Shown: in pieces, positions 25,207 to 59,924 of the stretch
Position numbering within the stretch: position 1 is the first letter of the stretch
How the letters are laid out: each line of letters opens with the position of its first letter
DNA from: an uncultured Pseudomonadota bacterium
Lineage (GTDB): Bacteria; Oederibacteriota; Muellerivitia; Muellerivitales; Muellerivitaceae
Direction of reading: 5' to 3'
Assembly: GCA_963836235.1 (NCBI GenBank)
Contig: CAWIIP010000002.1
Location: forward strand, 768,001 to 832,000
Length of the DNA: 64,000 nt
The notes under the pieces: model-generated
Seen by the model: the letters and a program-made list of their open reading frames with translations, nothing else
The model's database searches: none
What the model was told of the DNA's origin: nothing
Program-made: the position numbers and the translations under genes

Positions 25207-28200
25207 TTAGTGAACGACCAGCAGTTTGAGGGTTTGACGGCCCATAAGGCCTCCCCCGTTCGGGTTCGTTAATTCCACCACCGCCAGGTAGACGCCGCTG
25301 GCCACATGGGAAGCGTCCCAGGAAACAAGGCCGGTTCCGGCGTCGCCGCTATTCACTTGGACCAATTCCCCCGCAAGCGTGTAAATGGACACCTGTAAGG
25401 TCAGGCTCAAGGACGAGTTAGTGTGGAAGGTCGTCGTCATTGATCCCTTGGAAGCGTTCAACACATTGGGCCAAGCCGTCACCACGCCCATCCCGCTGGC
25501 CGTATTGCGGTCTTCCACCGAAACTTCCTTAATCACCGTGGTTTCCCCGCCGCTCCCGTCCACCGTATGCACTTCCACCAGGTACTGCCCGCTTTGCACA
25601 TAGGAGCCGTCGTCGCTGGTCCCGTTCCATACCATCGTCGTTCCGTTGCTCAGCGTGATCGTCAACTGACTGGGCGCGCCGGGGCTGGGCGCCAGTCCAG
25701 GTTCGATGACGGTGGAAGACAGGTTCACCGAGGCTACCCCCACCTGGCCGGGATCGTCAGTATAGGCATAAAGGTGCTTCACCACTTCCCCCGCCTCGTT
25801 ATAAATGAGGATGGTCGAGGTATAGAGCGTCCGGTTGACCATCACCTCCTGGGTCGTGCTCACCTCGGACCCCAAACTACTGAGGCTGTCCACCTTCACG
25901 TAATAGGCCCCATTGGCCGCCAGGGTTCCACTGGAAGTCGTCCCGTTCCAACTGCCCAGGGGCATACCGTCGTAATAAATCGTCACGGCGTTATTGGGCC
26001 CGTTCAGGCTGGTGATGGCGTTGCTGGACGCAAGCGTGATGTTCTCGACCGGTTGGGATAGTTGTTCCGTCAGGATCGTATCCACCAACTCACCCGCTTC
26101 GTTGTAAACCCCGATTTTGACCGAGTATTGGCCCGTCACCAGCACGCTCACGCTGGCCGTGACGGGAGCCCCTTCCGCATAGATCAATAGGGCGTTATTG
26201 GTGATGGTACTTCCGGAGGTCAGAAGGTTATTCAATTGTGCCTGGTAGACCAGCTGGTAATTCCCAGTCGCAAGGGGCGAGGGTAAAGTCCAAGTCAATA
26301 AGCTCCCAGCTGAGCTGGTGGCGGTTCCAGGCGGGCTGGAGACGAAATCAACAAAGGTTTCACTGGCAGGCAAAGGGTCGTTTACTACTAAGTTCTGGGC
26401 GCTGTTGCCCGTAACCACCAAGTTAAGGGTATAAGTCAAGGTGTTGCCCGATTGGGCCGAGGTGGCGGTAACCTGCTTGTTCATCGAAACCGAAGTCGGG
26501 GGTGTGGGAGTGGCGGTGTAAGTAGGGGTCAATGTCGGGGTAGTGGTTGAAGTGTTGGTCGGGGTCAATGTCGCGGTCCTGGTCGAAGTGTTGGTGGCGC
26601 TATTGGTCGCGGTAAAGGTCGCGGTCGCGGTGCGGCTATTGGTAGGCGAACTGGTGGGAGTGGCGGTAGCCGTGTTGGTGGTCGTGGAAGTGGGGGTATA
26701 GGTGGGAGTATCCGTGGCGGTGTTCGCCAAAGTGTTCGTGGCTGTGGCGGTGGGCGTATTGGTCAAGGAGTTCGTCGGAGTGTTCGTAGCGGTATCCGTG
26801 GCGGTATTGGCCAAAGTGTTCGTCGCCGTGGCGGTGGCCGTATTAGTCGGGGTGCCTGTCGCTGTGTTCGTTGGAGTGTTCGTGGCGGTGTTCGCCAAAG
26901 TATTCGTGGCTGTGGCGGTGGCGGTATTGGTCGGAGTGCCTGTCGCTGTGTTCGTTGGAGTGTTCGTGGCGCTATTCGCCAGGGTTTCCGTAGGGGTGAA
27001 AGTAGCCGTATTGCTGGGCGTGGCGGTCGAGGTATTAGTCGGGGTATTGGTGGCGGTGTTCGCCAAAGTGTTCGTTGGCGTGTTAGTGGCGGTGGAAGTT
27101 GGAGTGCGGGTGAAGGTATAGGTCGCCGTGTTCGTGAGCGTGCTGGTGGATGTGAAGGTGGGCGTGTTGGTGGGGGTACTGGTCGCTGTGGGCGTAATGA
27201 CATTGGTATTGGTCGGGGTCATCGTAATCGTGGCTGTGGCGGTGTTCGTGGGGGTATTGGTAGGTGAAGCGGTTGGGGTTTTCGTCATGGTATTGGTGAG
27301 CGTGTTGGTTTGTGTCGAAGTGGCGGTATTAGTCGGGGTGTTCGTCGCCGTGGGCGTATTGACGAAAGTATTGGTGGGCGTCGTGGTGGGAGTGTTGGTG
27401 GCCGTGGAGGTCGGCGTTTTAGTGGGGGTGATGGTGGCGGTATTGGTGGGCGTGTTCGTGAGGGTGTTGGTAATCGTAGGTGTGGGGGTTTTAGTGGGTG
27501 TGCTTGTGGCTGTTGGCGTAATGACGTTGGTGTTCGTCGGCGTCATGGTAATGGTATTGGTAGCCGTGTTCGTGGCCGTGTTCGTGGGAGTTGGGCTTGG
27601 CGTACGGGTCGGGGTGTTGGTGAGCGTGTTGGTGGCCGTAGCGGTATCAGTGTTAGTGGGGGTATTGGTCACCGTATTCGTGGGAGTATTCGTGCGCGTG
27701 GGAGTGGGCGTATTGGTAAGTGTCGGGGTGGCGGTATTGGTCGGAGTATTCGTTACCGTATTGGTAGGGGTATTCGTGCGGGTGGCAGTGGGCGTATTCG
27801 TAGCGGTATTCGTAAGCGTGTTCGCTATTGTGTTGGTGGGCGTGGGAGTCACCGTATTGGTCGGAGTGTTGGTGTGCGTGGGAGTGGGGGTGTTGGTCGC
27901 AGTATTCGTCACCGTATTGGTGGCTGTATTCGTGTGAGTGGGCGTGGGGGTGTTGGTCGGAGTGGGGGTGTACGTATTGGTTGGGGTATTGGTATTGGTT
28001 TTGGTGGGGGTATTAGTGGGCGTATTGACGACCGTATTGGTCGGAGTATTGGTTTGCGTATTGGTGGGAGTGTTAGTCCGAGTGGGGGTTTGGGTATTGG
28101 TGGGTGTGAAAGTGGGAGTCTTTGTTGGTGTGTTCGTGGGCGTATTGACGACGGTATTAGTTGGAGTGAGGGTGAAAGTGTGGGTAGGTGTATTCGTGGG

Positions 28201-29502
28201 TGTATTCGTGAATGTATTCGTGTGAGTATTGGTGTTGGTGGGGGTAGGAGTGCTGACTGGGGTTGTAGGCGTCGGTGTAGGGGTGAAAGTGCGAGTCCAA
28301 GTGGGGGTGGGCGTGTTGGTATAAGTGGGCGAATTGGTAAAAGTGAAGGTATTCGTAAAGGTGGGCGTAAAGCAGGGAATGCCGACGGTAAACTGGGCGG
28401 AAGGCCCCGCATGGCCGGCACCCCATGAAACGCTGGCATCGTCCACCACCGTCTGGCATTGGTTGTTGGGCCAATAATTCTGCACGAAAGCGAAACCGAC
28501 GGTAACGCAAGAGGAGCCCGGTAGCCCTGACGGAAAGGCTACATAGGCGGGCTGTCCCTGGCCGAATGTCGGGTCGTCACCTACTCCAAAGGTGGGACTG
28601 TAGCTCCAAGTGTAGGGATTGTTCCCAAAATTATCCCATCCAAAGCCCGAGACTTGAAAACCGGCGGTTCCATTGGCTCCCGTTCCCCAATTGTCGAAAA
28701 CCGTCACGGGGCCCGTCGTTATCGGCCCACCCGTATTGCAAACCGCCACCATGAAAGTGACGGCAATGGTATTCCCGGAAGTCACTCCACCACTGTAAGT
28801 CTTGGTGATACTAAGATTCGGGGGCCCAATGGTAGGTTCAGGGGTGGGGATGGTGGTGCATTGGCGCCAAAAAAGGGCGCCAGTGGAGGTGCCGTAGTCA
28901 CCCGAACAATTGTTGGAGGCGAAAGGAAGAGTCTTACCAGTGACCGGATTATACAATTGATTGGCCCAGGTGGAAGCCGTCACCCCGCTGGAACAATAGG
29001 CAGAACTAAAAGCGCCTCCCCCATAGGTTGGGCTGTACCAAGGATTGCCGCTGGAGTCGTTTGCGGGACCAGTGCAAGGATTACAATTGGAGGCATTGGT
29101 ATAATAATTTGAGATGCCACTTCCCGTACTGGTGATTTCAGAGTGCTGGCCGCCGGTGCAGGTAATATCCAGGTCCCAGGAGGTGAAGGTGTCTTGGGGG
29201 GCGGTATTTTGGGTGTAAATTCCCAAACAGACTTGCGCGCCCGTCAAGAGGGATGTCGATACGCTGATGCAAGTGGGACTTCCGGCTCCACCCGTTCCGG
29301 GAGCGCCGGCATAAGGAAAGGTTCCGATTAAAGTTCCGCCGACATAAGCTTGAGAAAAGTCATCGCTGGAGATACAGAGTGTCGCGGACTGAGGGGTACA
29401 TTGGGCCATAGCCTGGTTCGCGGGTATCGAAAGAAAACACAAAACCGCGAGCCCGGAAACCCAAAAACGATTTAAATTATTTTTTAATGTCTTGATGAAC
29501 AT
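25207..29502 (-). CDS. Large secreted Thr-rich surface protein: lectin-like N-domain, Cys-containing DUF11-like domain, about 620-aa (T-x)n stalk, DUF11, two FlgD-Ig-like domains, T9SS-like CTD
   Basis: Signal peptide ending AMA-Q; GNTLTYTL...VVNDPLP (DUF11); YNEAGE..WNGT..G.Y repeated; C-terminal WPN..IYTLAGE..ASGVY..KLLVVH. Start at 29502 preferred, 29574 possible. Confidence 0.85.
26500..28370 (-). repeat. Alternating-Thr low-complexity coding repeat
   Basis: TPTNT/TATNT arrays, including an 84-nt near-exact duplication starting at about 26846 and 26930. Confidence 0.9.
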
Positions 29503-29916
29503 TTCTTGTCTTTCTCGAAAAATAAACAACAACCGATAGTAAGCAAAACCCATCTGGCCTTCTATGATTGCCATCAGGTCACGATTTTTGAATCTTAGCT
29601 AAAGAAGTACCAAAAGCTCGAAACCGTCTATTAAACCGGTACCATTCCAAATCACTTAAAAAATACCCTCCAACCACTCAGCATTTGTGGTCGTTCAGGC
29701 GTTGGAAAACTATTACCTTATAACGATATTAACGGTCAATATTGTTCCTACTTGAGGAGTATCTCATACTTTTTTGATTTTAAAGAGGGTCTTGAACAAA
29801 AAAATAGGGGGATTTTGCCACATTATTGAGCCAAATTCCCTTTTAAGCCGGAAAGAGGTTTAAGTCTAACAAGTGGTTGCAGGGCTAAGTCCAAAGATTG
29901 AAAGCGTTGAAACCGT

Positions 29917-32070
29917 TCAGGGGTTTATCTCCGCCGACATAGCCCGAGCCTTGGCCATACATTCTTGGGCTAGGCTGGCCTGCCCAAGCGTCTCAAAGTC
30001 CTCCCCTATTTGCTGAACCCATTTGGGGTTCGTCGGATTGAGGTTCCAGGCGATTCGAAGCTCTTCCAAAGCCTTTGCCTTCAGCCCCTGAGAAATGTAA
30101 ATGTCCGCCATCTTGAGGTAATAAACCGGCTCCCGGGGATGTTGGTTGATTCCCTTCCGGTATAACTCCAAAGCCTGTTCGGATTTTCCTTCCCATTGGT
30201 AAATCGTGGCGAGATTCACGAGGTACTCGGAATTATCCGGGTCCAAGCGATGGGCTTTTTCGAAAGCCGTCCGGGCTTCCCCATACTTTTTCAAAAAACC
30301 ATAACTCACTCCCAAATTATTGTAGAACAGCGATGAACTCGGCTCGATCTGGAGGGCGGCTTGCATTTGTCCAATGGCCTCCTCATGCCGCCCTTGGCGT
30401 TCGTAAATAGTCCAAAGGCTGAGGCGAGGCAAGATGAATTGAGGATTCAGCGTCAGGGCATAGTCGAATTCCTGAACCGCTTCCGGAACCCGGTCCTTGT
30501 ACAAAAGGGCCGTTCCCAGTCCGCCGAAAGTCTCCGCCAGGGGCGGGGGAATGGCCGCGGCCCGGCTATAAGCCGCCAGCGCCTCGTCATAGCGATGGGC
30601 CTTGATATAAGCCGCCCCCAATTTGGAATAAGCGGTCGGATTTTCGTCTGGGTAAACTTGCGTCACCCTTTCCCACAAGGCCTGGGAATTTTTCCAGGTT
30701 CCGATCTGGGCCATGGTTCCCACTCCCAGAAGGGGCGTGGCCAAAAAGAGTAATGCCGCGTACAAAACCCAGTGGTAAGAAAGAAGAAATGCCACTCCCG
30801 CCGAGAAAGGCAGAAAAAAACCAAGGCTGGCCAAATAGGTATAGCGATCGGCGGCCGCTTCACTTCCCGTTTGGATGATTCCCACGACCGGCAAAAGGGT
30901 GACGACGTAAAAAAGCCAGGCTGTCAAAAGATAGGGAACCTGGCGGCGGTAACGGAATAAAAGAATGAAAATCAGAACCACCGCCGCCGCCGCGCCGAAA
31001 TTCTCCAAAAGGTAAAAATCATTCATTTCCGGGGGAAAGGGATAATAGGCCGTCAGCCCCAGGGGCCATGCCATTTTCAGCGGATAAAAAACCAGCGACC
31101 GGAAAGAATTCATCACCCAATAAAACTCGACCCCGCTCTTGGCATAGGAAAGGGTATTTTTATGCGAGACCACCGTCATTAAGACGGCTCCAAAAGCGAC
31201 GATGAAAAATGCGGTTTTCTCCCGGATGATTTTGGCCAAGCCCAATCGCCACCGGCCCAAAGGCCAACCATCGAGAATCAGGAAAACTAGGGGAAGGGTG
31301 ATGGCCATGGGTTTAGCCATCAAGGCAAGCAAGTAAAGCCCCAGACAGGCCCAGTACTTGAAACCCTTTCCTTTAAAGGAAAAAGGCTCGTCCAAATAAA
31401 GCCACAGGGCCCCCAGGTAGAAAAAAGAATAAAGCACATCCTTGCGCTCCGTGGCCCAGGCCACCGATTCCACATGGATCGGATGAAGCCCGAAAAGCAG
31501 AGCCGTCATAAAGGCGATGGGCAGGCCAAAAGCTTTGGGCCCATCGGCGTTTCCGGATACGGACTTATCGGGAAAATGCCTCATCAACCGAAAACACACC
31601 AGGAAAACCAGAACGGTATTTAATACATGGAAAAGAACATTGGTGGCATGGAACATCCGGGGGTCTAACCCGGTTAGCCGATAATTAAGGGCGAAAGAAA
31701 GCCAGGTGAGGGGTATCCAATTTCCCGTGGGGAAGGTGGTAAACATCCATCGTACCGAGTTCCAATCAAGCCGCCGGATTTGGACGTTATTCGTAATGTT
31801 GTCCATATCGTCCCAATTGACGAAATCATTTTTCAGGACCGGAAGATAAAAGAAAGCCACCGCCAGGGCCAAGAATATCGCGCAAACCCAGAGGATCTCC
31901 CGACCTCCCTGGAGAAAAGGGGGTAGTGGCGCGGTTGAAACCTTATCCAGGCTTCCCTTTTCGAGAACTTGGGCGACCTCCGCCTCGGTAAGCCCCGTTT
32001 GGGCCGATAATTCCCGAATCGAAAGGTGTCTTTTTCGCAGGATAAAATTAATTTTATTAGCTTTGGACAA
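29917..32070 (-). CDS. TMTC-like GT-C glycosyltransferase with C-terminal TPRs and N-terminal HTH-like segment
   Basis: FVNWDD, LHPIHVESVAWATERKDVL, AKPMAITLP, ADRYTYL, W.NS..LW, TPR array; TTG start. Confidence 0.85.
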   Translation of the reverse strand: MSKANKINFILRKRHLSIRELSAQTGLTEAEVAQVLEKGSLDKVSTAPLPPFLQGGREILWVCAIFLALAVAFFYLPVLKNDFVNWDDMDNITNNVQIRRLDWNSVRWMFTTFPTGNWIPLTWLSFALNYRLTGLDPRMFHATNVLFHVLNTVLVFLVCFRLMRHFPDKSVSGNADGPKAFGLPIAFMTALLFGLHPIHVESVAWATERKDVLYSFFYLGALWLYLDEPFSFKGKGFKYWACLGLYLLALMAKPMAITLPLVFLILDGWPLGRWRLGLAKIIREKTAFFIVAFGAVLMTVVSHKNTLSYAKSGVEFYWVMNSFRSLVFYPLKMAWPLGLTAYYPFPPEMNDFYLLENFGAAAAVVLIFILLFRYRRQVPYLLTAWLFYVVTLLPVVGIIQTGSEAAADRYTYLASLGFFLPFSAGVAFLLSYHWVLYAALLFLATPLLGVGTMAQIGTWKNSQALWERVTQVYPDENPTAYSKLGAAYIKAHRYDEALAAYSRAAAIPPPLAETFGGLGTALLYKDRVPEAVQEFDYALTLNPQFILPRLSLWTIYERQGRHEEAIGQMQAALQIEPSSSLFYNNLGVSYGFLKKYGEARTAFEKAHRLDPDNSEYLVNLATIYQWEGKSEQALELYRKGINQHPREPVYYLKMADIYISQGLKAKALEELRIAWNLNPTNPKWVQQIGEDFETLGQASLAQECMAKARAMSAEINP

Positions 32071-32317: not shown

Positions 32318-34426
32318 TTGTCGAAAATAAAGAAAAAAATAGAGTTCATCCGGCAGAACCAGCATCTTCCAATTCCAGCGTTAGTCACGCAAACGGGTTT
32401 GAATGAGCGACAGATTACAGAGATATTAAATCGTTTAAAAGAAAAACCGAAACCCTCTCCTCCGCCCTCTAACTCCGTTCAAATGGATGGGCGTCAATTA
32501 TGGGTATGCTCCATTCTCTTGGTTTTGGCCGTGGTTTTATTTTACCTGCCGCTACTGAAAAACGAATTCGTCAACTGGGACGACAGTGAATTTATTCTAA
32601 AAAATATTAATATTCGCTATTTGAATTTCCAAGCCATTCAATGGATGTTCACGAACAAATTCACCTATTGGATGCCCCTCACCTGGTTTTCTTGGGCATT
32701 GAATTTTTGGATGGGCGGGCTCAACCCCCAGGTTTATCACCTCACCAATCTTTTTCTTCACGCTTCAAATACCGTGTTGGTTTTCCTAATTTGCCTTCGG
32801 CTATTAGCTTTGGCCCAAAACAAGCCGGAAATCCTTAAGGATAGAAATGTTCAGGATTTCGTCATTCCCACCGCCTTAATGACGGCCCTCGTGTTCGGGC
32901 TCCACCCTATACATGTGGAATCCGTGGCCTGGGCCACGGAAAGAAAAGACGTCCTTTACGCCTTTTTTTATCTATCGGGCATCTTTTTTTACCTGGGTAA
33001 TACTTCCAACCCCGCCAATAAAAATTTGAGGCTGTACGTTTGCTTTGGGTTGTACCTTTTCTCCTTGATGTCTAAGCCTATGGCAGTAACCCTCCCGCTG
33101 GTTTTCCTCATACTGGATTATTGGCCTTTGAAACGCTTTCTAGGTGAATTTTCTAAGGTTGTAACTGAAAAAATTCCATTTTTCGTCTTGGCTTTTATGA
33201 TTGGTGTTTTTTCGGTACTGTCCGCCAAGGATACCCTTTCCACCAACGCAGGTACCCCCACGGCTTTATGGGTCATGAACGCATTCCGTTCTTTGGTTTA
33301 TTACCCATGCAAAATCCTCGTGCCCTTAGACCTCGTTCCTTTGGTTCCATTTCCTCACACAATGGGTATTGTTTACGAAATGGAGAATATTCTGGCCGCC
33401 TTCTCGGCAGTATTAATAACCCTAGGTTGTTTTCTTTACCGAAAGAAATGGCCGTTCTTGGGGGCAGCATGGCTGTATTACTTGGTCACTCTAGCGCCTG
33501 TGGTTGGTTTTTTCAAAACGGGAACCCAAGCGGCAGCAGACCGATTTACTTACCTATCCACCTTGAGCTTGTTTCTGTTGTTTGCGGTAGGGGTCGCCTT
33601 TTTATTATCGAACCGGCGGATGATCTTTAGGATTTTTCTGTTGATTTTAACCGGAGCGTTAGGTTACGGAACAATCAAACAACTTGAAATCTGGAGGAAT
33701 TCCCAAACCCTGTGGGAAAGCGTGGTGCGGGTTTATCCAGATGATGCCGCGGTTGCCTATTCCTATCTGGGAGGCACTTATACCGAAGCCAAAAGGTGGG
33801 ATGATGCTTTAACAGCATTCAATCGGGCTCTTTCCATTTCTCCTTCCTTGGCCAAAGCCCATCAAGGCTTGGGGCGCCTTCTTTTTTATACGGGAAAACT
33901 GAATGAGGCTATCCCGGAATTCAAGACCGCCATCTCCCTCGACCCAAAAGATGTTCTCCTATACCAAAACCTTTGGAATGTTTATGAAGGCCTGGGAAAG
34001 CATGAAGAAGCCATCACCGAGATGCAGGAAGCGATTCAATTAGACCCAAATAACGAATTGAACTACAGCAATCTCGGGATAAGTTATTCTTTTTTGAAAA
34101 AATATCCCGAAGCGCAAGCTGCTTTTCAAAAAGCCTACGACTTGGAACCGGACAAACCCCAAAACTTGCTTTACCTGGCGACGGTCCACTTATGGCAGGG
34201 GCATTTGGATGAGGCGACGGACTTATACCGGAAAGGGATCGAGCAAAATCCCCGTGCTGCGGTTTATTACCTGAAACTGTCGGAAATCTATATCGAAAAG
34301 AAAATGCTTCCTGAAGCGATGGAAATGCTTCATGCCGCATCGGACTTAAATCCCCAAGATCCAACGCTAATCCAAGAAATGAAGACGGATTACCAAAAGA
34401 TAGGTCAAAAAGCTCCCGAACAATAA
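32318..34426 (+). CDS. TMTC-like GT-C glycosyltransferase with TPRs, divergent paralogue
   Basis: FVNWDD, LHPIHVESVAWATERKDVL, SKPMAVTLP, ADRFTYL, TPR array; TTG start. Confidence 0.85.
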   Translation: MSKIKKKIEFIRQNQHLPIPALVTQTGLNERQITEILNRLKEKPKPSPPPSNSVQMDGRQLWVCSILLVLAVVLFYLPLLKNEFVNWDDSEFILKNINIRYLNFQAIQWMFTNKFTYWMPLTWFSWALNFWMGGLNPQVYHLTNLFLHASNTVLVFLICLRLLALAQNKPEILKDRNVQDFVIPTALMTALVFGLHPIHVESVAWATERKDVLYAFFYLSGIFFYLGNTSNPANKNLRLYVCFGLYLFSLMSKPMAVTLPLVFLILDYWPLKRFLGEFSKVVTEKIPFFVLAFMIGVFSVLSAKDTLSTNAGTPTALWVMNAFRSLVYYPCKILVPLDLVPLVPFPHTMGIVYEMENILAAFSAVLITLGCFLYRKKWPFLGAAWLYYLVTLAPVVGFFKTGTQAAADRFTYLSTLSLFLLFAVGVAFLLSNRRMIFRIFLLILTGALGYGTIKQLEIWRNSQTLWESVVRVYPDDAAVAYSYLGGTYTEAKRWDDALTAFNRALSISPSLAKAHQGLGRLLFYTGKLNEAIPEFKTAISLDPKDVLLYQNLWNVYEGLGKHEEAITEMQEAIQLDPNNELNYSNLGISYSFLKKYPEAQAAFQKAYDLEPDKPQNLLYLATVHLWQGHLDEATDLYRKGIEQNPRAAVYYLKLSEIYIEKKMLPEAMEMLHAASDLNPQDPTLIQEMKTDYQKIGQKAPEQ

Positions 34427-34466
34427 GGTTCAAAAAGGCAGGTAGAGACGATATTCTCCTTGCGAT

Positions 34467-45429: not shown

Positions 45430-45459
45430 GGGATCCCCAGGTTGAATTCTTAATACATC

Positions 45460-45528
45460 TTATGGGCCTCCATCGGCCAATTCAAGGAGAAGAAGAAAAG
45501 GAAAAAAAATATCGGCTAAAAACCTCAT
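45460..45528 (-). pseudogene. Truncated remnant of a DUF5615 (PIN-like) toxin gene
   Basis: ATGA overlap with the DUF433 stop; begins MRFLAD, then unrelated sequence to a stop after 22 codons. Confidence 0.55.
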
Positions 45529-45752
45529 ACACCACTGCCCGTCAGGGGATGAACCTCCTCTTGGACCAGGGCGGCGGCATATTGGAGGGCTTGGTGGATA
45601 TCCTCCGCTTCAAGGTCGGGGTATTCCTGGAGTATTTCCTTCGTCGTCATGCCATCGGCAACCATGTTCACGACATGCGCAACGGTGATCCTCATTCCAC
45701 GGATACAAGCCTTCCCACCCATGATTTTCGGTTCAAAAGTAATCCTGTCCAT
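45525..45752 (-). CDS. DUF433 family antitoxin-like protein
   Basis: RITFEPKIMGGKACIRGMRITV...EILQEYPDLEAEDI..AL.YAA; GGAGG RBS. Confidence 0.93.
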   Translation of the reverse strand: MDRITFEPKIMGGKACIRGMRITVAHVVNMVADGMTTKEILQEYPDLEAEDIHQALQYAAALVQEEVHPLTGSGV

Positions 45753-46164
45753 TCACGGCCTCCCTTAGCCAAAAGCCTTGCGACGAAAACAGTTTAGCAC
45801 ACACGGCGCACTGAATGAATCCTGCCTATTATTGGGAATGAATTTGCCTATCAAAACCGGCTTGCCTTTTCACCATCCAACAAAAGTGACCCCCTTCAGG
45901 ACTAACTCAAGCCCGTCACAAAGTTCGTTTCTCTCGTTTCAGAACCACCGAAATTTTCCGCCTCGGCGCTTATCTTCACAGTCAGCTTCTATTCGAATCC
46001 CAAAACAGGCCAATTATTGTTCAAAAAATGTCTAAGGTTAAAGCGGAAACCTTTTTTCCCTAAAATTTTATTTGACGAAAAACATTTTTTGGAAATATCC
46101 TCCCCGCCATCAAGCTTCTTTAAAAATTTCATGGGCTTGAAATTTATTTTCTGGAGGAACGTTT

Positions 46165-47625: not shown

Positions 47626-47642
47626 GGATAAAGGCCTCTTGA

Positions 47643-52199: not shown

Positions 52200-52259
52200 T
52201 AATAGGCTGGCATCAACCGCTTTTAAAATTTTTCCGTGAGCCCGAAATCCTAACAAGGA

Positions 52260-55200
52260 TTAATGAATGACGACGACCTTGCCCGTCCATCGCTGGGACC
52301 CTGAGCCATTATTGACCTCAAGCGCGTAAAGGTACAAACTGCTCGCGACCGCCTGCCCGGACTGGTTTTGAACCTGCCAAAGCAGGTTGTTCAGGCCCGC
52401 GTTTCCCGCAATAGTGCTTTGGTAGATTTGTTCCCCCAAAAGGGTGTACAAGGACAAATGAACCTGGGCCGGCCCCGGCAACTGGACTTTAAATTGAATA
52501 GGTTCATCGTTCCGGGAAATATTCGGCGCCACCACCACCGCCAGGTTGCCCAAGGTGGGACTGGGGGTGACGGTAAATGTCGGTGTCATCGTGGAAGTGG
52601 GCGTTTCCGCGCGTTGCGCATTCTTGGAAAGGGCCGCGATTTTGACCGACAGGGCAACGGCGGTGGGCGTGGGCCCGCAAGGCACGTATTCCCCCACGAT
52701 CATATTGACCGAATTAACATAAAGTACCCCGCTCGGGCTGACGGCTACCCCCAAGGGGTAACCTATTTGATTGGCGGCCTCATCCGGACCCGTGGCGATC
52801 TGGCAGACCGGATTGCCATTGGGGTCATATTTGGAGACGGGGTTTAAGCCTTCACCCGCCACGTAAATATATCCCGCCGAATCCGCCGTTAAATTGACGC
52901 CGATGCTGCTCCAGGAGATACCGGTAGCGACTCCCGCCGCGGTGAATTGATGAACCCCGGTGCCGTCGAGTACGTAAACCAATTCCGTGTTGCTGACGCA
53001 GATTCCCTTAGGGGCGCTAAATCCCCCGCTTTCCCCAAATTGCGTGGGGATACCCCCGGGCGCCCCCCCGTTGTAGGTAAATTCCTGGACCCTGCCGTTT
53101 AAGCCCTCATCCACCGTGTAAACATTATTGGACACCGGGTCCACCGCGACGCCGAACAGCCCCGCGAATTGGCCAATGGCAATCCCGCTGGTTCCCCATT
53201 GGTTTAAATAACCGCCGGTGGGACCGAATACCTCCACCCGGCTGTTTCCTTGGTCCGCCACGTAAATGGAAGTGCCGGCCGAATTGACGGCGATTTCATA
53301 GGGACCGTTTAAATTGCCGTTTCCGGATCCCGTCCCGCCAAAGGAGAGGATGAAATTCGTGGAGGAACCGGAGGTGTCGAACTTATCCACCAGGTTGTTC
53401 GCCTGGTCCGTGACATAGACGCACGGCCCGGGCTGCCCGTTGCAGTTGGTGCTGTTATCAAGGGCGATGTCATAAACGGGGTTGCCGAAACTATAGCTCC
53501 CGTCTGCGTCGCTTCCGGAAGTTCCCCACTTTAAGGAGAAGTTATAACAGCAGCCGCCCGGGGTTGAAGTGACGCTGGGTGTGGGAGTCAGGGTGGGCGT
53601 ATTGGTTAGGGTTGAAGTGGCCGTCGACATGCTGGTGTTGGTTGGCGTCGGGCTTGGCGTAATAGTTGTCGTCTCCGTAAGCGTATTCGTGGGAGTGCGT
53701 GTTTCCGTTACGGTCCTGGTATTCGTCACCGTACGAGTTGCGGTGGTTGTGGGGGAATTAGTCCTCGTCGGCGTTATGGTGGCGGTCCTCGTCGGTGTGC
53801 GAGTGTCGGTGACCGTCCGTGTATTGGTCGGCGTGCGGGTTTCTGTCACTGTCCTCGTATTGGTTACGGTTCCCGTCGGCGTATGAGTCTCCGTTACGGT
53901 TCGTGTATGTGTCGGGGTGTGGGTATCCGTCACGGTCCTGGTATTCGTCACCGTATGAGTCGCGGTGATTGTGGGGGAATTAGTCCTCGTGGGGGTTATG
54001 GTCGGCGTCCTGGTGGGGGTACGGGTATCCGTTACTGTTCGAGTATTGGTCGGGGTGCGGGTGTCTGTTGCTGTCCTTGTGTTGGTAACGGTTCTCGTCG
54101 GGGTGCCGGTGGGGGTTTGGGTTACCGTCACGGTGGGCGTAAAAGTCCAGGTGGGAGCCGGAATGCATGACGAAATACTCGAGAGAGCTTTGTAGACGTC
54201 CAACAGGCCATAGCCCTGGGTGGGTGTCCAGCCCGTTTGGCCCGGCAGAAGGTCGGTATTGCTGATAATGGCTTGGGTGACTTGCACATTCGTGAGGTTC
54301 GGGCACAAGCAGAACATCAAAGCGGCCGTGCCGGAGACGTAAGGAGCCGAGGCCGAGGTTCCGGCGGCGATGCAAAAGTTGCTGTCCGCGGGGTTGGCTA
54401 TGAAATCGGCCGGGTTGGCCGAAAAGGGGCAATTGAGGCGGGCCCCAAAGACATTCTGCGAGGCGTCAAGGGTGAAATTACCGGTAGCCATGGCCGACCC
54501 TCCCGGGGCGACCAGGTCCAACCCGGGGCCTGAGTTGGAATAAAAAGCAATGCCGCCGCTGGCGTCCGTGGCTCCTACCGATATCAACGCCGGAAGGGAA
54601 TAAGGAGGATTGGTAAAGCTCGCGGGGAAAAGCAAGGGAACGGCCGTACCATCGTCCCCGGAGGAAGCCACCGCGACGCAACCGTTGGACATCGCGTATT
54701 GCAGCACTAAGTACTGTAAATAATCAGGAAGCATTCCTCCCAAGGACAGGTTTAAAACCTTGGCGCCGTTTTCGATCGCGTAAAGCGTTCCATAAGCCAC
54801 ACCAGCGGCGGAGCCACTGCCCGTGTTGTCCAAAACCTTGACCGGCATGAGCTTCACACCCGGAGCCAAACCCGCCATCCCGGTGGTGGAAGAACCCGGA
54901 TTGCAGGCTTCCGGCTGAACCGTACTTTGCCATTGGGCCCAAAGAAGAGAGGAAACAAAAGTCCCGTGACCAAAATCATCGTCCGTCGGTTCGACCGTTG
55001 TGTAGGGAGCTAACCCCAAAGTGGGTTGGGGTGGATCCACCAAACCCGTAAAGGCGTTGTATCCTGGAACAAAAAGGGAAGGGGGAAGATCCGGATGGGA
55101 CCTCGTCACGCCAGTATCGATCACGGCTACCGTCACCGAGCAACCCGGTGGACAGGAATTCCAAGTAATATTTTGCCAGGCTTGGGGAGCGCTGATTTGC

Positions 55201-55607
55201 TGTAGGGGCCAATTATAAGGTGAACTGTAATACTGGTCGGTTGGCAGAGGACAGCCCAGCGCGTAATAGCGGACATTCGGCTCGGCCCAAAGGACGGAAG
55301 GATCGCTTTGGCATTCGCTGACGGCTTGGGAAACCCCTAACCCGCCTTGAAGCTCAACTTTGAAAATACCCTCGAACAAGGGATTGGAAACCGGCAGTTT
55401 CAGGCGGTCGGCTCTTCCCAGGTGGCGCAAAAAAATTTCCGATTGAAACCGGTTTATGCCGGGTTTGAACTGGACAAGGATTTCCCCCGGTACGTAGGCT
55501 TCTTTTCCGGCCATACCCGATACCAAAGACTTCGCTTCGCTTGCGGTTCCAATGAGGAAGAACGCCATGAATAACCATACGATTCCAGTCAATAATAAAT
55601 TTTTCAT
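52260..55607 (-). CDS. Secreted S8 subtilase with Thr stalk, NHL propeller and T9SS-like CTD
   Basis: YVPGEILVQFK and AEPN prodomain; VAVIDTG / GHGTFVS / GTSASAP; YVADQGNSRV NHL repeats; APN..LYTLLGE..ASSLY..KVVVIH. Confidence 0.92.
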   Translation of the reverse strand: MKNLLLTGIVWLFMAFFLIGTASEAKSLVSGMAGKEAYVPGEILVQFKPGINRFQSEIFLRHLGRADRLKLPVSNPLFEGIFKVELQGGLGVSQAVSECQSDPSVLWAEPNVRYYALGCPLPTDQYYSSPYNWPLQQISAPQAWQNITWNSCPPGCSVTVAVIDTGVTRSHPDLPPSLFVPGYNAFTGLVDPPQPTLGLAPYTTVEPTDDDFGHGTFVSSLLWAQWQSTVQPEACNPGSSTTGMAGLAPGVKLMPVKVLDNTGSGSAAGVAYGTLYAIENGAKVLNLSLGGMLPDYLQYLVLQYAMSNGCVAVASSGDDGTAVPLLFPASFTNPPYSLPALISVGATDASGGIAFYSNSGPGLDLVAPGGSAMATGNFTLDASQNVFGARLNCPFSANPADFIANPADSNFCIAAGTSASAPYVSGTAALMFCLCPNLTNVQVTQAIISNTDLLPGQTGWTPTQGYGLLDVYKALSSISSCIPAPTWTFTPTVTVTQTPTGTPTRTVTNTRTATDTRTPTNTRTVTDTRTPTRTPTITPTRTNSPTITATHTVTNTRTVTDTHTPTHTRTVTETHTPTGTVTNTRTVTETRTPTNTRTVTDTRTPTRTATITPTRTNSPTTTATRTVTNTRTVTETRTPTNTLTETTTITPSPTPTNTSMSTATSTLTNTPTLTPTPSVTSTPGGCCYNFSLKWGTSGSDADGSYSFGNPVYDIALDNSTNCNGQPGPCVYVTDQANNLVDKFDTSGSSTNFILSFGGTGSGNGNLNGPYEIAVNSAGTSIYVADQGNSRVEVFGPTGGYLNQWGTSGIAIGQFAGLFGVAVDPVSNNVYTVDEGLNGRVQEFTYNGGAPGGIPTQFGESGGFSAPKGICVSNTELVYVLDGTGVHQFTAAGVATGISWSSIGVNLTADSAGYIYVAGEGLNPVSKYDPNGNPVCQIATGPDEAANQIGYPLGVAVSPSGVLYVNSVNMIVGEYVPCGPTPTAVALSVKIAALSKNAQRAETPTSTMTPTFTVTPSPTLGNLAVVVAPNISRNDEPIQFKVQLPGPAQVHLSLYTLLGEQIYQSTIAGNAGLNNLLWQVQNQSGQAVASSLYLYALEVNNGSGSQRWTGKVVVIH

Positions 55608-55994: not shown

Positions 55995-58900
55995 TTACCG
56001 CAGGATGAGTAGTTTGAGGATGCTTCTTCCCTGGTTGGTTTGGACCACCACGTAATAAAGCCCGCTGGCCAAAGGTGTTCCCCTCTTATCCACTAAGGGA
56101 ATCGGTACGCTCGCTCCCGGCTGCACGTTTGAATAATTCAAGGTGGCCACTTTCCGGAAGGCAATCGTGAAGATCTCAATGCTCACGTCCGATGGCGAAG
56201 TCAAATCCGGATTCAACTGAACCGTTCCTCCGGTAGTGGGATTCGGATAAACCACCGGTTTGGCTGAAGGGGTTGAGGTTGGAGTGGCGGTAACCGTCGG
56301 CATCGGCGTAATGGTTTTAGTGGCTGTTGAGGTGACCGTCGAACTGGGGGTGTAAGTCGCCGTAGCGGCCACGATGGTGACCGTGACACCGGACACGGGC
56401 AATCCGGTAAAGAGAAGGGGCTGGCCGTTGCTTCCCGTGGCGTTCGTGGCGCTGAAGGAATAGCTCCCCACCGGTGACGACGAGGAGAAGTTCGCGGTGA
56501 CTTCGTAGGTCACGGCTCCATTGGCTCCCGGAATGACTCCGTTGAAGTTGAAGGTGGCGTTTGACCCGCTAAAGCTGGCCGTGGAAATGAGCGTTCCATT
56601 CGCGAAAAGATTGACCGAGGTGATCCCGCTGGGAAGGCTTCCCGTCCCGGTGAGGGTGATGCTGGTGAGCGTGACTGGGTTGCTGCTGGGATTGTTCATC
56701 TGGATCTGTTGGATGGGAACTCCGGAAGCGCCTGGGATTTGGGTGGAGCTACCCGGCGGGCTGGACCCTTGCGAGGCCGAAACCGTCACCGGCGTGGGGC
56801 TGAAAGTGGGTGTGACGGACGCCGTTGAGGTGGTGGTCGCCGTGGCGGTATTAACCAAGGTGTTGGTGGCGGTGGAAGTGGGAGTCATGGTGCTGGTCTT
56901 AGTCGGGGTTCCGGTGTTGATCAGGGTATTGGTAGCAGTCGCCGTGGAAGTTCGGGTAGGGCTGTTGGTCAACGTCTCCGTCGGAGTTAACGAAGAGGTG
57001 TAAGTCGGGCTGTTACTGGCGGTATTCGTGGTGGTGACGGTAGCCGTTGAAGTCGGCGTCCCGGTGTTAATGAGAGTATTGGTAACGGTAGCCGTGGAAG
57101 TGCGGGTGGGGCTATTGGTGGGTGAACCTGTCGGAGTCAATGAAGACGTGTAAGTTGGACTGTTGCTGGCCGTGTTCGTGGTGGTGACCGTGGCGGTTGA
57201 GGTCGGAGTTCCGGTATTGATGAGGGTATTGGTGGCCGTCGCCGTGGAAGTGCGAGTAGGGCTGTTGGTGGCTGTCCCAGTTGGAGTCAACGAAGAGGTG
57301 TAAGTCGGGCTATTGCTGGCGGTGTTCGTGGTGGTGACGGTAGCAGTCGAAGTTGGGGTTCCGGTGTTAATGAGAGTATTGGTAACGGTAGCCGTGGAAG
57401 TGCGAGTAGGGCTGTTGGTGGCTGTCCCAGTTGGAGTCAACGAAGAGGCGTAAGTCGGGCTATTGCTGGCGGTGTTCGTGGTGGTGACGGTAGCAGTCGA
57501 AGTTGGGGTTCCGGTGTTGATGAGAGTATTGGTAGCCGTTGCCGTGGAAGTGCGGGTGGGGCTGTTGGTGGGCGAACCGGTTGGGGTCAACGAAGAGGTG
57601 TAAGTCGGGCTGTTGCTGGCGGTGTTCGTGGTGGTTGCCGTGGCGGTACGAGTTGAGGTGGACGTTGCGGTTAAAGTCGCCGTATTAACCAGGGTATTGG
57701 TGGCCGTTGCCGTGAAAGTGCGGGTGGGGCTATTGGTGGGCGAACCTGTCGGAGTCAATGAAGACGTGTAAGTTGGGCTGTTACTCGCGGTATTCGTGGT
57801 CGTTGCCGTGGCGGTACGGGTTGCGGTGGAAGTTGAAGTATTCGTAGGGCTATTCGTTACGGTCTTCGTGGGCGTACTAGTCGCCGTAGTAGTGGCTGTG
57901 TTCGTCGTGGTACTGGTAACCGTACTAGTTGAAGTGTTCGCCGGGGTATTCGTGCGGGTTGTGGTTGGAGTAGAAGTCAATGTATTCGTGGGGCTGTTCG
58001 TTACGGTTTTCGTGGCCGTATTGGTGGCGCTATTCGTCGGGGTGCTGGTAGCGTTCAATGGAGTGTTTGTCGGGCTATTGGAAGGGGTAAAGGTGGGTGT
58101 TTTGGTCGCGGTGGGCGTTGCGCTATTGGTGGCGGTTTTCGTGGCCGTGCTGGTATTAACCACCGGCGTGTTCGTCGGGCTGCTGGTGGGTGTGGGACTG
58201 GGTGTGTTGCAAATAACCGTAATGGCAATGGTATTGCTGTTAACCGGTCCTCCTCCGGACCAAGTCGCCGTTCCCTTGTCGCTCACCACCTGGCAGGAAT
58301 CGCTGGCGTTGAAGGAATAAGCGACCACGCTAAAAGCGATCGGAACGCAATCCCCGCCTGGTAAATTGCTCACGACCCAAGTAATTGGAAATCCTGAAGT
58401 ATTCAGGGGATTGATCGTCACCGGCACACCCGAAACCGTGACCGCCCATTGGCTAAAATTGGGGCCGTCCTGGGACCAACTCAAGGGATTGGTGATATTG
58501 TCCACCACCGTAACGCCGTTGGCCGTCACCGATCCCGAGGCGTTGCAAACCGTGATGGTCATGGCGATGGCTGTTCCCGTTTCGGGATAACCGGACGTGG
58601 GCCCACCGGTCGTCTTAGTCAAGGTAATACTGGGAGGAACGGTTGTGGCGGTGGGAGTAAAGCTAGGGGTCGCGGTGAAGGTCTTGGTGGGTGTGCCGGT
58701 AGGCACCGGGCTTCCCGCCACGCAATTAGGGGTCGGCGTTTGGTTGAGTTGAGCCAGCCAAGTGGAAACCGGGGCTCCGTGATAGGAAGTGGTGGGGTAG
58801 CCACTGAAGCTCGTCAAGAGCGTCGGACTCACGTCCGAGCTGAAAGCCCAAGCCATTCCGGAATAAACATAATTATGGTCGTTGGTCCCGTTGAGCCAGG

Positions 58901-59924
58901 CGATGGTGCTGTTGTCCCATGCGACTCCGTCGGAAGAGGTCGCGCCGAATTCCTCGATGATAACAGCGTGGGCCGGGCTGGTGGCCGTGGCATCCGTGAT
59001 ATAGGTGTCCCATTGGGATCCGCCCGCCGGGTATCCCTTGCTGGAATAAACATGGGAGGAATAGAGGACGCCATTGCCCGAACCCGTATCGGTCAGGTCA
59101 TTGGCGGGTAGCCCCGTCAAGTCGAAAGCCCAGTTAAGTCCGCCCGCCACCACGATGTTATTGGCGCCCGCGTTGCGGACAGCGGTCAAGAGGGCCTGGA
59201 GGCCCGGAGTTGTGAAACCATTGGCCGCGCCACCGTCCCGCCAGATGGACCAGCTGACGTCGTGGGGCTCGTTATAGATGTCGAACATGACGGCGGGATT
59301 GTTGGCATAAGTGGAGGCCACCGAGGACCAGAAAGTGACGGCGTTCATGTCCGGCATATCTTGTTGGGCGGTAGCGCCACCCCATCCCGTTCCGCAAGGT
59401 GCTGTCGCGGTGCTTGAGGTTCCCGACCAATGGAGGTCCAAATCCAAATAGACATTGTTCGCGGAGCAATAGTTGATGACCGCCTGGATTTCCGCCCGAT
59501 AGGCGGTTTGATTGGGCGTCCCTCCTGAATTGGTACAGCCGAACCAAAAATCCTGGTTGATGGGGAACCGGACGCAGTTGGCGTGCCAAACGCTGACCGC
59601 CTCAGTGATGATCGAAACGTAATCCGTCATGGTGACGCCGCTAATAGTGGTCGTGGGACGGCCTGTGCCACCGTCACCCGTGGGGCTATATTCCATTCCG
59701 GAAACGTCCACACCCTTTAAGCGGACAGTACAACCGCCGCTGGCTGTAACAATCTGGTTACCCGAGATTTTAAGTTGAGCGGAAGTCGCGTGAACTTCGG
59801 AAGGAACCACCACAAAAAAGAGGAAAACCGCAAGGGACAAAAAGGACACAAAAACAAATCGAGCGAAAAACGTTTTTAAGTTTTCGCATAAAGTGAATTT
59901 CTGGATTTTAAAGGACCCGTTCAT
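55995..59924 (-). CDS. Secreted GH5 glycoside hydrolase (cellulase-like) with DUF11-like domain, Thr/Ser stalk and T9SS-like CTD
   Basis: LKGV..SGME, ANCVRFP, LDLHW, FDIYNEPH (acid/base), H.Y, IIEEFG (nucleophile); VYPNP..LASGLYY..KLLILR. Confidence 0.9.
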   Translation of the reverse strand: MNGSFKIQKFTLCENLKTFFARFVFVSFLSLAVFLFFVVVPSEVHATSAQLKISGNQIVTASGGCTVRLKGVDVSGMEYSPTGDGGTGRPTTTISGVTMTDYVSIITEAVSVWHANCVRFPINQDFWFGCTNSGGTPNQTAYRAEIQAVINYCSANNVYLDLDLHWSGTSSTATAPCGTGWGGATAQQDMPDMNAVTFWSSVASTYANNPAVMFDIYNEPHDVSWSIWRDGGAANGFTTPGLQALLTAVRNAGANNIVVAGGLNWAFDLTGLPANDLTDTGSGNGVLYSSHVYSSKGYPAGGSQWDTYITDATATSPAHAVIIEEFGATSSDGVAWDNSTIAWLNGTNDHNYVYSGMAWAFSSDVSPTLLTSFSGYPTTSYHGAPVSTWLAQLNQTPTPNCVAGSPVPTGTPTKTFTATPSFTPTATTVPPSITLTKTTGGPTSGYPETGTAIAMTITVCNASGSVTANGVTVVDNITNPLSWSQDGPNFSQWAVTVSGVPVTINPLNTSGFPITWVVSNLPGGDCVPIAFSVVAYSFNASDSCQVVSDKGTATWSGGGPVNSNTIAITVICNTPSPTPTSSPTNTPVVNTSTATKTATNSATPTATKTPTFTPSNSPTNTPLNATSTPTNSATNTATKTVTNSPTNTLTSTPTTTRTNTPANTSTSTVTSTTTNTATTTATSTPTKTVTNSPTNTSTSTATRTATATTTNTASNSPTYTSSLTPTGSPTNSPTRTFTATATNTLVNTATLTATSTSTRTATATTTNTASNSPTYTSSLTPTGSPTNSPTRTSTATATNTLINTGTPTSTATVTTTNTASNSPTYASSLTPTGTATNSPTRTSTATVTNTLINTGTPTSTATVTTTNTASNSPTYTSSLTPTGTATNSPTRTSTATATNTLINTGTPTSTATVTTTNTASNSPTYTSSLTPTGSPTNSPTRTSTATVTNTLINTGTPTSTATVTTTNTASNSPTYTSSLTPTETLTNSPTRTSTATATNTLINTGTPTKTSTMTPTSTATNTLVNTATATTTSTASVTPTFSPTPVTVSASQGSSPPGSSTQIPGASGVPIQQIQMNNPSSNPVTLTSITLTGTGSLPSGITSVNLFANGTLISTASFSGSNATFNFNGVIPGANGAVTYEVTANFSSSSPVGSYSFSATNATGSNGQPLLFTGLPVSGVTVTIVAATATYTPSSTVTSTATKTITPMPTVTATPTSTPSAKPVVYPNPTTGGTVQLNPDLTSPSDVSIEIFTIAFRKVATLNYSNVQPGASVPIPLVDKRGTPLASGLYYVVVQTNQGRSILKLLILR
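56900..57800 (-). repeat. 150-nt (50-aa) tandem repeat in the GH5 stalk, about six copies
   Basis: The anchor taagt(c/t)gg recurs at 57001, 57151, 57301, 57451 and 57601, then at 57769. Confidence 0.9.

Follow-up and report, generated by a model that had tools for sequence, protein, structure and literature searches.

The window analyzed here is a 64,000-nucleotide stretch of contig CAWIIP010000002.1 (assembly GCA_963836235.1), corresponding to C2:768001-832000 of a 3.97-Mb genome in 5 contigs that is 99.4% complete (G000). Its positions 25207-59924 contain ten large genes, including five that encode exported proteins with long threonine-rich linkers of the form (T-x)n and four that encode candidate membrane glycosyltransferases of the GT-C type, all within 35 kb. 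This report concerns the relationship between these linker proteins and the GT-C genes. An earlier note on this stretch had described five exported (T-x)n proteins with a common C-terminal domain (CTD) among GT-C genes, and a total of seven GT-C genes in 64 kb. All of these elements were recovered where it had placed them, and the count of seven (two TMTC-like, one TMEM260-like and four YfhO-like) was confirmed. Open reading frames (ORFs) were called crudely as longest ORFs without a gene finder, giving 3400 in the genome, and a linker segment was defined by at least 35% Thr in 40-aa windows.

Linker protein 1 (25207-29574, minus strand; 1455 aa) has a signal-like N terminus, a Cys-rich/DUF11-like N-domain, Ig-like (FlgD_ig) repeats and the CTD, and its (T-x)n segment occupies residues 390-1050 (661 aa, 301 Thr). 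In linker protein 2 (34467-41846, minus strand; 2459 aa), BNR/Ycf48-like, CBM3-like and NHL repeats are parted by five (T-x)n segments and followed by the CTD. Linker protein 3 (42020-44668, plus strand; 882 aa) is a subtilisin-like Peptidase_S8 that has a prodomain as well as the CTD, and residues 667-793 form its (T-x)n segment. Linker protein 4 (52260-55607, minus strand; 1115 aa) also has an S8 protease domain, together with an NHL beta-propeller and the CTD, and here the (T-x)n segment spans residues 473-689. Linker protein 5 (55995-59924, minus strand; 1309 aa) consists of a GH5 cellulase, a DUF11-like domain and the CTD, and has 610 linker residues, including about six tandem repeats of 50 aa. 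Hydrophobic signal-like N termini are present in all five ORFs. The T-rich segments of linker proteins 1 to 5 contain 301, 198, 43, 96 and 238 Thr residues, respectively, and the T-x-T register predominates.

At the DNA level, the T-rich segments are partly made of tandem repeats of 84, 150 and 168 nt. The possibility that the T-rich ORFs are wrong-frame artefacts was rejected, as Pfam domains flank the linkers on both sides in the same frame. A (T-x)8 DNA pattern had 5109 matches in the genome, compared to 9 for the reversed control pattern, and the linkers are therefore far above chance. Linker proteins make up 144 of the 3400 ORFs. Together, their linker segments comprise 40,933 residues (41% Thr), equivalent to 3.4% of the proteome. 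The residue x in T-x-T is most commonly Pro (22.5%), Ala, Asn or Ser.

The last ~85 residues of all five linker proteins align and represent a related CTD. In the GH5 protein, this domain passes the NCBIfam model TIGR04183 for the type A sorting domain of the T9SS (type IX secretion system), with 28.2 bits at a cut-off of 23. The CTDs of the other four proteins matched Por_Secre_tail, FlgD_ig and CHU_C, all below the cut-off. With a CTD hidden Markov model built in this analysis from the tails of the five linker proteins, the domain was detected at the C terminus of 112 proteins of the genome, 95 of which are also linker bearing. The 49 linker proteins without the CTD are mostly 180 to 750 aa long, with the T-rich segment often located just after an N-terminal hydrophobic stretch (e.g., residues ~30-150); these may reside in the periplasm or at the surface, held by a membrane or lipid anchor. 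A SprA-like frame of 2029 aa (C1, about 510.5-516.6 kb) gave a three-piece match (112, 72 and 29 bits), with each piece below the 200-bit cut-off, and 19 weak PorV-like matches at scattered loci were likewise all below the cut-off. The SprA-like frame and the PorV-like matches suggest a divergent, putative T9SS-type export route.

Two of the GT-C candidates lie between linker proteins 1 and 2. TMTC-like candidate 1 (TMTC1; 29917-32070, minus strand; 717 aa) has a predicted cytoplasmic N terminus of ~55 aa, a multi-pass transmembrane (TM) domain and ~7 tetratricopeptide repeats (TPRs). TMTC-like candidate 2 (32318-34426, plus strand; 702 aa) is its divergently oriented paralogue, with about 49-51% identity in the TM domain. 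Crude hydropathy analysis indicated ~9-11 hydrophobic segments in residues 53-456 of TMTC1, and TPR family matches were found at ~460-710. The conserved features of the TM domain are D87-D88 in the first loop, HPxHxE, R209-x-D211, K253 and D408-R409-x-x-Y412. Following TM1, the D87-D88 pair shows almost no variation among 34 homologues and is invariant (as D33 and D34) in a 13-sequence TM alignment. The TMTC (GT105) O-mannosyltransferases possess a strict DD in the first extracytoplasmic loop (motif M1) and the further motifs M3 (RxD), M4 (KE(T/Q)xxT) and M7 (ERxxY), and an HPIHxE-type motif is quoted for human TMTC3 (PMC7801869; this and all other papers are cited from excerpts). In a comparison by eye with Table 4 of PMC7801869, R209-K-D211 and D408-R409-x-x-Y412 were conserved and in the correct order. 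In the region of the KE(T/Q)xxT motif, TMTC1 has K253 and T258, and the metal-binding Glu is replaced by Pro.

No Pfam or NCBIfam model matched the TM domain of the TMTC-like proteins. In TMTC enzymes, the DUF1736 loop (PF08409) between TM7 and TM8 is described as critical to catalytic activity. PF08409 did not match the TMTC-like TM domain even at E <= 10, gave a single unrelated match across the genome (E = 0.013) and was found in none of 120 TMTC-like homologues among the matches listed. A phmmer search of PDB with the TMTC-like protein returned TPR matches only, and hhalign comparisons of its TM domain to the TMEM260-like protein alone and to the TMEM260-like and PMT_2 alignments, including a 119-sequence deep profile, were all nonsignificant (E 0.02-0.045 against TMEM260-like). 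The family is very large, with 98,763 clusters (50% identity) at E <= 0.001, and TMTC-like homologues carry the JGI label 'protein O-mannosyl-transferase', which is an annotation only. Both TMTC-like proteins begin with a K/R-rich, presumably cytoplasmic stretch of ~40-55 aa (31908-32070, minus strand, and 32318-32480, plus strand). This segment bears a weak, nonsignificant likeness to a helix-turn-helix (HTH_26, E = 0.18), and the matches to the close orthologues of G001 and G024 start at residues 1-4.

The other two GT-C genes of the 35-kb region form a second pair. The YfhO-like gene YfhO4 (47789-50155, plus strand; 788 aa) scored 17.5 bits with Pfam YfhO (PF09586), for which the cut-off is 28.5, and ten other YfhO-like genes of the genome were matched in a phmmer search (E 3e-138 to 7.5e-10). 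The 3' end of YfhO4 overlaps the TMEM260-like gene (50130-52199, plus strand; 689 aa) by 26 nt, and an operon is therefore likely. The TMEM260-like protein matched PF11028 (E = 2e-19; 70.4 bits versus a cut-off of 24.2) at profile positions 1-62 only and has C-terminal TPRs at residues 613-681; in the control panel, Bacteroides thetaiotaomicron gives a PF11028 match as well. Residues 31-456 aligned to residues 41-487 of human TMEM260 (structure chain 9rql_A; E = 6.7e-19). The HPPGYPLF motif is identical, and D42, which is invariant across 8 TMEM260-like paralogues, aligns with Asp52, the catalytic residue in the first luminal loop of the human enzyme (PMC10214176). The remaining three YfhO-like genes of the window are located upstream, at 8915-11188 (20.5 bits with PF09586, below the cut-off), 11181-13481 (40.0 bits, above) and 15221-17545 (29.9 bits, above), all on the plus strand. 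The four window YfhO-like genes are linked by phmmer, directly or via a shared paralogue (E 2e-27 to 7e-6). Overall, the gene identifications of the earlier note were essentially right. Judged by sequence, the TMEM260-like family assignment is solid and the YfhO-like assignment appears acceptable through transitive homology, while the TMTC-like name is a putative one based on architecture and motifs.

GT-C enzymes use polyprenyl-phosphate-linked sugar donors, and their catalytic acidic residues are extracytoplasmic (PMC7801869, PMC10214176, PMC12041528). Given the cytoplasmic K/R-rich N terminus and the acidic motif in the first loop, the TPR domains would be periplasmic. By analogy, O-glycosylation of Thr-rich linkers by periplasmic GT-C enzymes is plausible, and the Thr linkers would be the most plausible bulk acceptor. 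The sequences themselves show the gene identities, abundances, adjacency statistics and synteny; topology, donor, acceptor and glycosylation itself are predictions from knowledge of these families. The putative cargo is built from functional domains (S8, GH5, NHL, Ig-like), followed by (T-x)n linkers and then the C-terminal sorting domain. After export of the cargo by Sec, periplasmic GT-C enzymes would move sugars from polyprenyl-phosphate carriers onto Ser/Thr of the exported proteins, and the CTD would then direct the cargo through the SprA-like translocon. The linker would hold the working domain at a distance from the cell surface, with glycosylation stiffening the linkers as spacers and shielding them from the organism's own S8 proteases. 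We give roughly even chances to the interpretation that the GT-C genes constitute a genome-wide periplasmic O-glycosylation capacity, with at most one local enzyme-substrate pair, and not a dedicated operon for the five neighboring linker proteins.

The genome encodes 57 GT-C genes, comprising 34 PMT_2 matches (27 over the cut-off), 13 YfhO-like, 8 TMEM260-like and 2 TMTC-like genes. The PMT_2-type genes are often arranged in tandem, with 2-4 paralogues (~700 aa) per array (e.g., C2:1537557-1546434, C2:1569486-1576381 and C5:84618-97973). The earlier note had proposed a dedicated pathway, in which the four interleaved GT-C genes O-glycosylate hundreds of Thr residues in their five neighbors and the TPRs possibly recognize the CTD or Ig-like domains. 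The high local density of 4 GT-C and 5 linker genes in 35 kb is in line with such a pathway, as is the presence of a neighboring linker gene at both TMTC-like genes of the genome (2/2), and GT-C genes located beside their substrates have been published (PMC12041528, PMC6151902). However, only 4 of the 57 GT-C genes have a directly neighboring linker gene, compared to 4.4 +/- 2.3 expected (P = 0.60) under circular shifts that preserve each gene class's own clustering; all 34 PMT_2 matches, 7 of them below the Pfam cut-off, were included in these adjacency tests. The same at-chance result was obtained for windows of +/-2, 3 and 5 genes. Likewise, 4 adjacent GT-C-linker pairs were observed versus 4.67 expected, and the 23 non-PMT_2 GT-C genes accounted for 4 pairs versus 1.89 expected (P = 0.15). 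Outside the window, the remaining 50 GT-C genes formed 1 adjacent linker pair versus about 4.2 expected. A co-cluster as dense as the densest one observed (an 11-gene stretch with >=3 GT-C and >=3 linker genes) appeared somewhere in 39% of the circular shifts, and not one of the 57 GT-C genes falls within the longest run of linker genes (13 genes at C2:1,053,591-1,105,314). As both gene classes are very common in this genome, their closeness in the window is no more than expected by chance, and the GT-C/linker interleaving is not beyond chance.

An independent genome gave a similar result. In G012, a relative with 14 TMTC-like copies, a linker neighbor was found for 2 of 14 copies versus 14 of 171 control genes (8.2%; P = 0.32), the controls being the interior genes of 20 evenly spaced windows. 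Windows holding a linker gene were about as frequent in the test set (6/14) as in the control set (8/20). The genes that TMTC-like copies do lie near are other GT-C genes, which made up 10 of the 143 other genes in the TMTC windows and 5 of 219 in the control windows (Fisher P = 0.033). The adjacency in the window genome and in G012 thus does not bear out the proposal of a dedicated local pathway.

Comparisons were made across 41 genomes of one phylum (the window genome and 40 relatives) from 10 families. The genes of the corresponding locus in the sister species G001 run GH5-linker protein, TMEM260-like, YfhO-like, TMTC-like, TMTC1, linker protein 1, LacI, DUF4912, GH57 and ROK, with identities to the window proteins of 82% (TMEM260-like), 75% (YfhO-like) and 74% (TMTC1). 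The second TMTC-like gene of G001 is only ~41% identical to either window paralogue and is therefore not an orthologue of them. The four GT-C genes are contiguous in G001 and have two flanking linker genes only. Linker protein 2, both S8 proteases and the toxin-antitoxin (TA)/ParB island are not among them; three of the five 'interleaved' genes are thus absent between the GT-C genes, which argues against the dedicated pathway. In G020, from a different genus, orthologues of YfhO4, TMTC1 and linker protein 1 occur in the order YfhO4 ... TMTC1 -> linker protein 1 (58, 58 and 61% identity). The linker protein 1 orthologue is located directly downstream of the TMTC1 orthologue in both G001 (locus L013) and G020 (L014, of which L016 is a duplicate). 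The YfhO-TMTC1-linker protein 1 order therefore recurs in two other genomes, from two genera, and among the linker genes only that of linker protein 1 keeps its place beside a GT-C gene (TMTC1) in other genera. A simple scan of the 342-nt gap between TMTC1 and linker protein 1 revealed no terminator-like or promoter-like site, which is no proof of co-transcription in an organism whose promoters may differ. TMTC and YfhO4 orthologues are adjacent in G024 and G004, and in G022 the TMTC gene is flanked by a small linker protein gene and a TMEM260-like gene. TMTC-like genes are located near other GT-C genes in G020, G021, G022 and G004.

Among the best TMTC-like hits of 19 other genomes, a linker gene was adjacent in 6 and not in 13. 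This count omits G017, in which no ORF of the locus was labelled TMTC-like, and in G015, G014, G024 and G018 the TMTC-like gene is at a contig end with one neighbor visible. The closest TMTC1 orthologues (>=55% identity; G001, G020, G024 and G022) had an adjacent linker gene in 4 of 4 cases. These closest orthologues are a partial exception to the at-chance adjacency, and their loci are related to that of the window. With the window genome included (7 of 20 genomes), the nominal binomial P is 0.0009. This value is an overstatement, because the loci of G000, G001 and G020 are orthologous to one another and the hits in G024 and G022 are the closest TMTC1 orthologues. The sole local pairing with evolutionary support is that of TMTC1 (with YfhO4) and linker protein 1, and the defensible unit is the GT-C block plus this one conserved, co-directional neighbor. 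In addition, TMTC-like and TMEM260-like gene counts do not follow the linkers across genomes, and both families occur in linker-free genomes (see below). With the 4 of 4 closest orthologues on one side and these observations on the other, we consider a dedicated pathway for all five neighbors to be quite improbable.

The (T-x)8 DNA pattern was present in 36 of the 41 genomes, with 132 to 18,252 matches; the reversed control gave 0-165 matches per strand. All five genomes of families f4 and f5 (G027, G028, G034, G035 and G040) had zero matches. These five linker-free genomes keep the CTD (8-29 matches), TMEM260-like (3-16), PMT_2 (2-18) and YfhO-like (1-6) genes, and four of them have TMTC-like matches, most of which are weak; as a group, they provide a natural contrast to the linker-bearing genomes. 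Conversely, no TMTC-like match was found in eight linker-bearing genomes (G002, G003, G019, G023, G025, G029, G031 and G037). G036, which is 100% complete and has 2694 pattern matches and 81 CTD matches, yielded no YfhO-like match with the query used and one weak match each for TMEM260-like and TMTC-like.

Linker abundance correlated best with the CTD count (Spearman rho 0.86). Of the GT-C families, PMT_2 had the highest correlation (rho 0.74; partial on genome size 0.54; 0.66 inside and 0.52 outside family f1), followed by YfhO-like (rho 0.61; partial 0.42; 0.01 outside f1). Co-occurrence of linkers with the TMTC and DUF2723 families, which the earlier note had proposed as a check, was not observed, with rho values of 0.35 for TMTC-like (partial 0.13) and 0.18 for TMEM260-like (partial -0.06) genes. 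No GT-C family could be demonstrated to track the linkers once relatedness is taken into account, and TMTC-like and TMEM260-like genes track them least. The comparative data weakly suggest that PMT_2 and YfhO-like enzymes, rather than TMTC-like and TMEM260-like enzymes, serve the linkers, and the latter two may have other protein acceptors.

These differences between families could reflect a division of labor, in which PMT_2 (GT39/GT83-like) and perhaps YfhO-like enzymes act on the disordered Thr linkers, while TMTC-like and TMEM260-like enzymes act on strands of folded beta-sandwich domains (CTD, FlgD_ig-like, DUF11-like). Animal TMTC and TMEM260 modify folded Ig-like domains (PMC10214176, PMC11292533) and not mucin-like stretches, which suggests such a division. 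The PMT_2 count follows the linkers best, and the TMTC-like and TMEM260-like counts do not follow them. Furthermore, linker-free genomes retain both CTD proteins and TMEM260-like genes, and linker protein 1, the conserved neighbor of TMTC1, is rich in Ig-like domains. However, neither the TMTC-like nor the TMEM260-like count goes with the number of CTDs (rho 0.39 and 0.23, respectively; 0.14 and -0.06 with genome size partialled out), and the PMT_2 correlation is weaker at the family level and within genera. We therefore regard this division of labor as a rather unlikely, tentative explanation.

Another alternative is that the GT-C enzymes modify nonprotein acceptors, such as lipid A or the lipopolysaccharide core, envelope polysaccharides or exopolysaccharides, or periplasmic glucans, with the TPRs used for complex assembly, the (T-x)n segments being plain unglycosylated spacers and the neighborhood being coincidental. 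Adjacency at the level of chance and the persistence of GT-C families in linker-free genomes are both compatible with this alternative. Likewise, YfhO homologues of B. subtilis and Listeria glycosylate teichoic acids (PMC12041528). Among eight PMT_2 proteins of the genome that were scanned, two end in a carbohydrate-binding PA14 domain and one in YkcB_C. The three upstream YfhO-like genes are part of a glycan module of overlapping or abutting ORFs (5779-17545, plus strand), which also contains genes for GT4 (5779-6882), a flippase-like protein (TIGR00374; 6882-7847), GT2 (7847-8878), an FkbM methyltransferase (13474-14334) and DapF (14347-15249). GT2 and the flippase-like protein precede the YfhO-like genes, and the module is possibly a set for lipid-carrier sugar loading, flipping and transfer, with sugar methylation. 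On the other hand, where the acceptor of a TPR-bearing GT-C enzyme is known (TMTC, TMEM260), it is a protein in the excerpts cited above, and the catalytic Asp and overall similarity to TMEM260 are kept here. The JGI name of the TMTC-like homologues, which has the weight of an annotation only, points in the same direction. Moreover, judging from the cellulase work in PMC6151902, a proteome in which Thr linkers amount to 3.4% of the residues, alongside secreted S8 proteases, would appear to require protection from proteolysis. Overall, this alternative appears doubtful.

Several observations weigh against the favored interpretation of a genome-wide O-glycosylation capacity. Genome size itself correlates with linker abundance (rho 0.61) and confounds the PMT_2 and YfhO-like correlations, and all of the correlations treat related genomes as independent points even though relatedness confounds them. 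At the level of family means, the PMT_2 correlation drops to rho 0.49 (n = 10, P = 0.15), and within genera the sign of the PMT_2 contrast agrees in 4 of 7 informative cases (hand count). As for the enzymes, the TM-domain profile of the TMTC-like protein gave 0 matches against PDB at E <= 10, and the best hhalign result against PMT_2 was nonsignificant (E = 0.0025, probability 12%). No GtrA-type flippase was matched in the genome, and no GT-A donor synthase is located beside the YfhO4/TMEM260-like pair. The linkers may be unglycosylated. Finally, the synteny of TMTC1 with linker protein 1 and the 4 of 4 closest orthologues allow for a genuine coupling at this locus, which is nearer to the proposal of the earlier note than a pure chance account.

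Systems in which GT-C enzymes O-glycosylate the Thr-rich linkers of bacterial secreted proteins are already known, and in some cases the enzyme is encoded next to its substrates. In streptococci, the YfhO-family enzymes PgtC2 and PgfM1 glycosylate Ser/Thr-rich disordered regions, and the pgf operon adjoins adhesin substrate genes (PMC12041528). The window genes resemble the GtrB/PgtC2 and Pgf (PgfS-PgfM1-PgfE-PgfM2) systems in having YfhO-like GT-C proteins, for which cooperation of more than one GT-C is described there, and in the extracytoplasmic location and the Ser/Thr-rich targets that would apply here. In contrast, streptococci are monoderm Firmicutes in which a defined GT-A donor synthase is encoded alongside, while the organism studied here is apparently diderm with T9SS-like cargo. 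The pair in the window lacks such a neighbor, and YfhO4, which is below the Pfam cut-off, has a candidate activity only.

In Caldicellulosiruptor bescii, the GT39 gene Cbes_1864 near celA is needed for glycosylating secreted cellulases with alternating Thr-Pro linkers, and without GT39 more cleavage of CelA occurs (PMC6151902). As in this system and that of actinobacterial Pmt, also covered in PMC6151902, GT-C genes are found here near multidomain secreted glycanases, and the architecture of the GH5 and S8 proteins matches. However, a single GT39 serves the whole exoproteome of C. bescii, whereas the window genome has its 34 PMT_2-type matches elsewhere and the GT-C genes found locally are from different families. 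The linkers also differ from Thr-Pro linkers, as x is Pro in just 22.5% of T-x here.

The TMTC-like and TMEM260-like proteins share with animal TMTC1-4 (GT105) and TMEM260 a multi-pass GT-C-type domain followed by C-terminal TPRs (PMC7801869, PMC10214176). For the TMEM260-like protein, the likeness extends to whole-module similarity and the catalytic Asp, and for the TMTC-like proteins it extends to the DD after TM1, the HPIHxE-type motif and, as compared by eye, RxD and (D/E)RxxY. Unlike the animal enzymes, the TMTC-like proteins are without the DUF1736 loop and without the Glu of KE(T/Q)xxT, and the animal targets are folded cadherin EC or IPT domains and not mucin-like stretches. The bacterial side is covered in the excerpts of PMC10214176 only by a mention of distant TMEM260 homologues. 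The general O-glycosylation and T9SS cargo of Bacteroidota (PMC12871550) would be similar in being periplasmic, in using undecaprenyl-phosphate carriers and in involving cargo with a C-terminal beta-sandwich sorting domain. However, a short sequon is glycosylated en bloc in Bacteroidota, by a transferase that is still undiscovered according to the excerpts of PMC12871550, whereas the candidate acceptors here are long T-x arrays. The T9SS components are divergent as well, with SprA-like and PorV-like matches below the cut-offs.

What would be new here are the GT-C families involved, the diderm T9SS-like context and the scale. A search of the open-access literature found no description of this linker/GT-C architecture and no described substrate for bacterial TMTC-like or TMEM260-like proteins, with DUF2723 appearing in one paper. 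The excerpts of PMC10434106 on FCPU426, a lineage to which the earlier note had likened the architecture, do not mention these features. Should the linkers carry glycans, this lineage would be devoting ~3.4% of its proteome residues and no fewer than 57 genes for membrane glycosyltransferases to a mucin-like surface, representing an extreme case of bacterial O-glycosylation. This would bear on the spacing of secreted proteases and glycanases from the cell and on protection from proteolysis. TMTC1 and linker protein 1 constitute a concrete pair of enzyme and candidate substrate. A more specific, speculative reading, to which we assign a low probability, is that the YfhO-like/TMTC-like/TMEM260-like block is a periplasmic counterpart of animal domain-specific O-mannosylation. 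TPR-bearing GT-C enzymes would then recognize defined clients before T9SS-type export, and linker protein 1 would be the TMTC1 client through its Ig-like domains or (T-x)n arrays. If so, these would be the first proposed substrates for the very large bacterial TMTC-like family, and TMEM260-like proteins would be candidates for the undiscovered O-glycosyltransferase of T9SS-bearing lineages. As a general caution, where two classes of gene saturate a genome, even a conspicuous interleaving of the two can be a product of chance.

An accessory island on mixed strands (44769-47625), outside the glycosylation/linker set, is located between the two GT-C pairs and consists of a PIN-family toxin gene (44769-45203, minus strand; TIGR00305, 37.3 bits), two ORFs without a family match (45193-45429, minus strand, 78 aa; 45525-45752, minus strand, 75 aa) and a gene for a ParB-N-domain protein of 486 aa whose tail is long and charged (46165-47625, plus strand). 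A glucan-metabolism block (20253-24973, minus strand) encoding a ROK kinase, a GH57 branching enzyme, a DUF4912 protein and a LacI-family regulator adjoins linker protein 1 and is syntenic with G001. Beyond linker protein 5, a fluoride riboswitch (RF01734, 49.8 bits) was identified at 60923-60987 on the minus strand, and a 129-aa membrane ORF (60495-60884) and a 122-aa ORF (60117-60485) are located downstream of it on the same strand. This riboswitch unit (60117-60987) looks like an ordinary fluoride-export unit.

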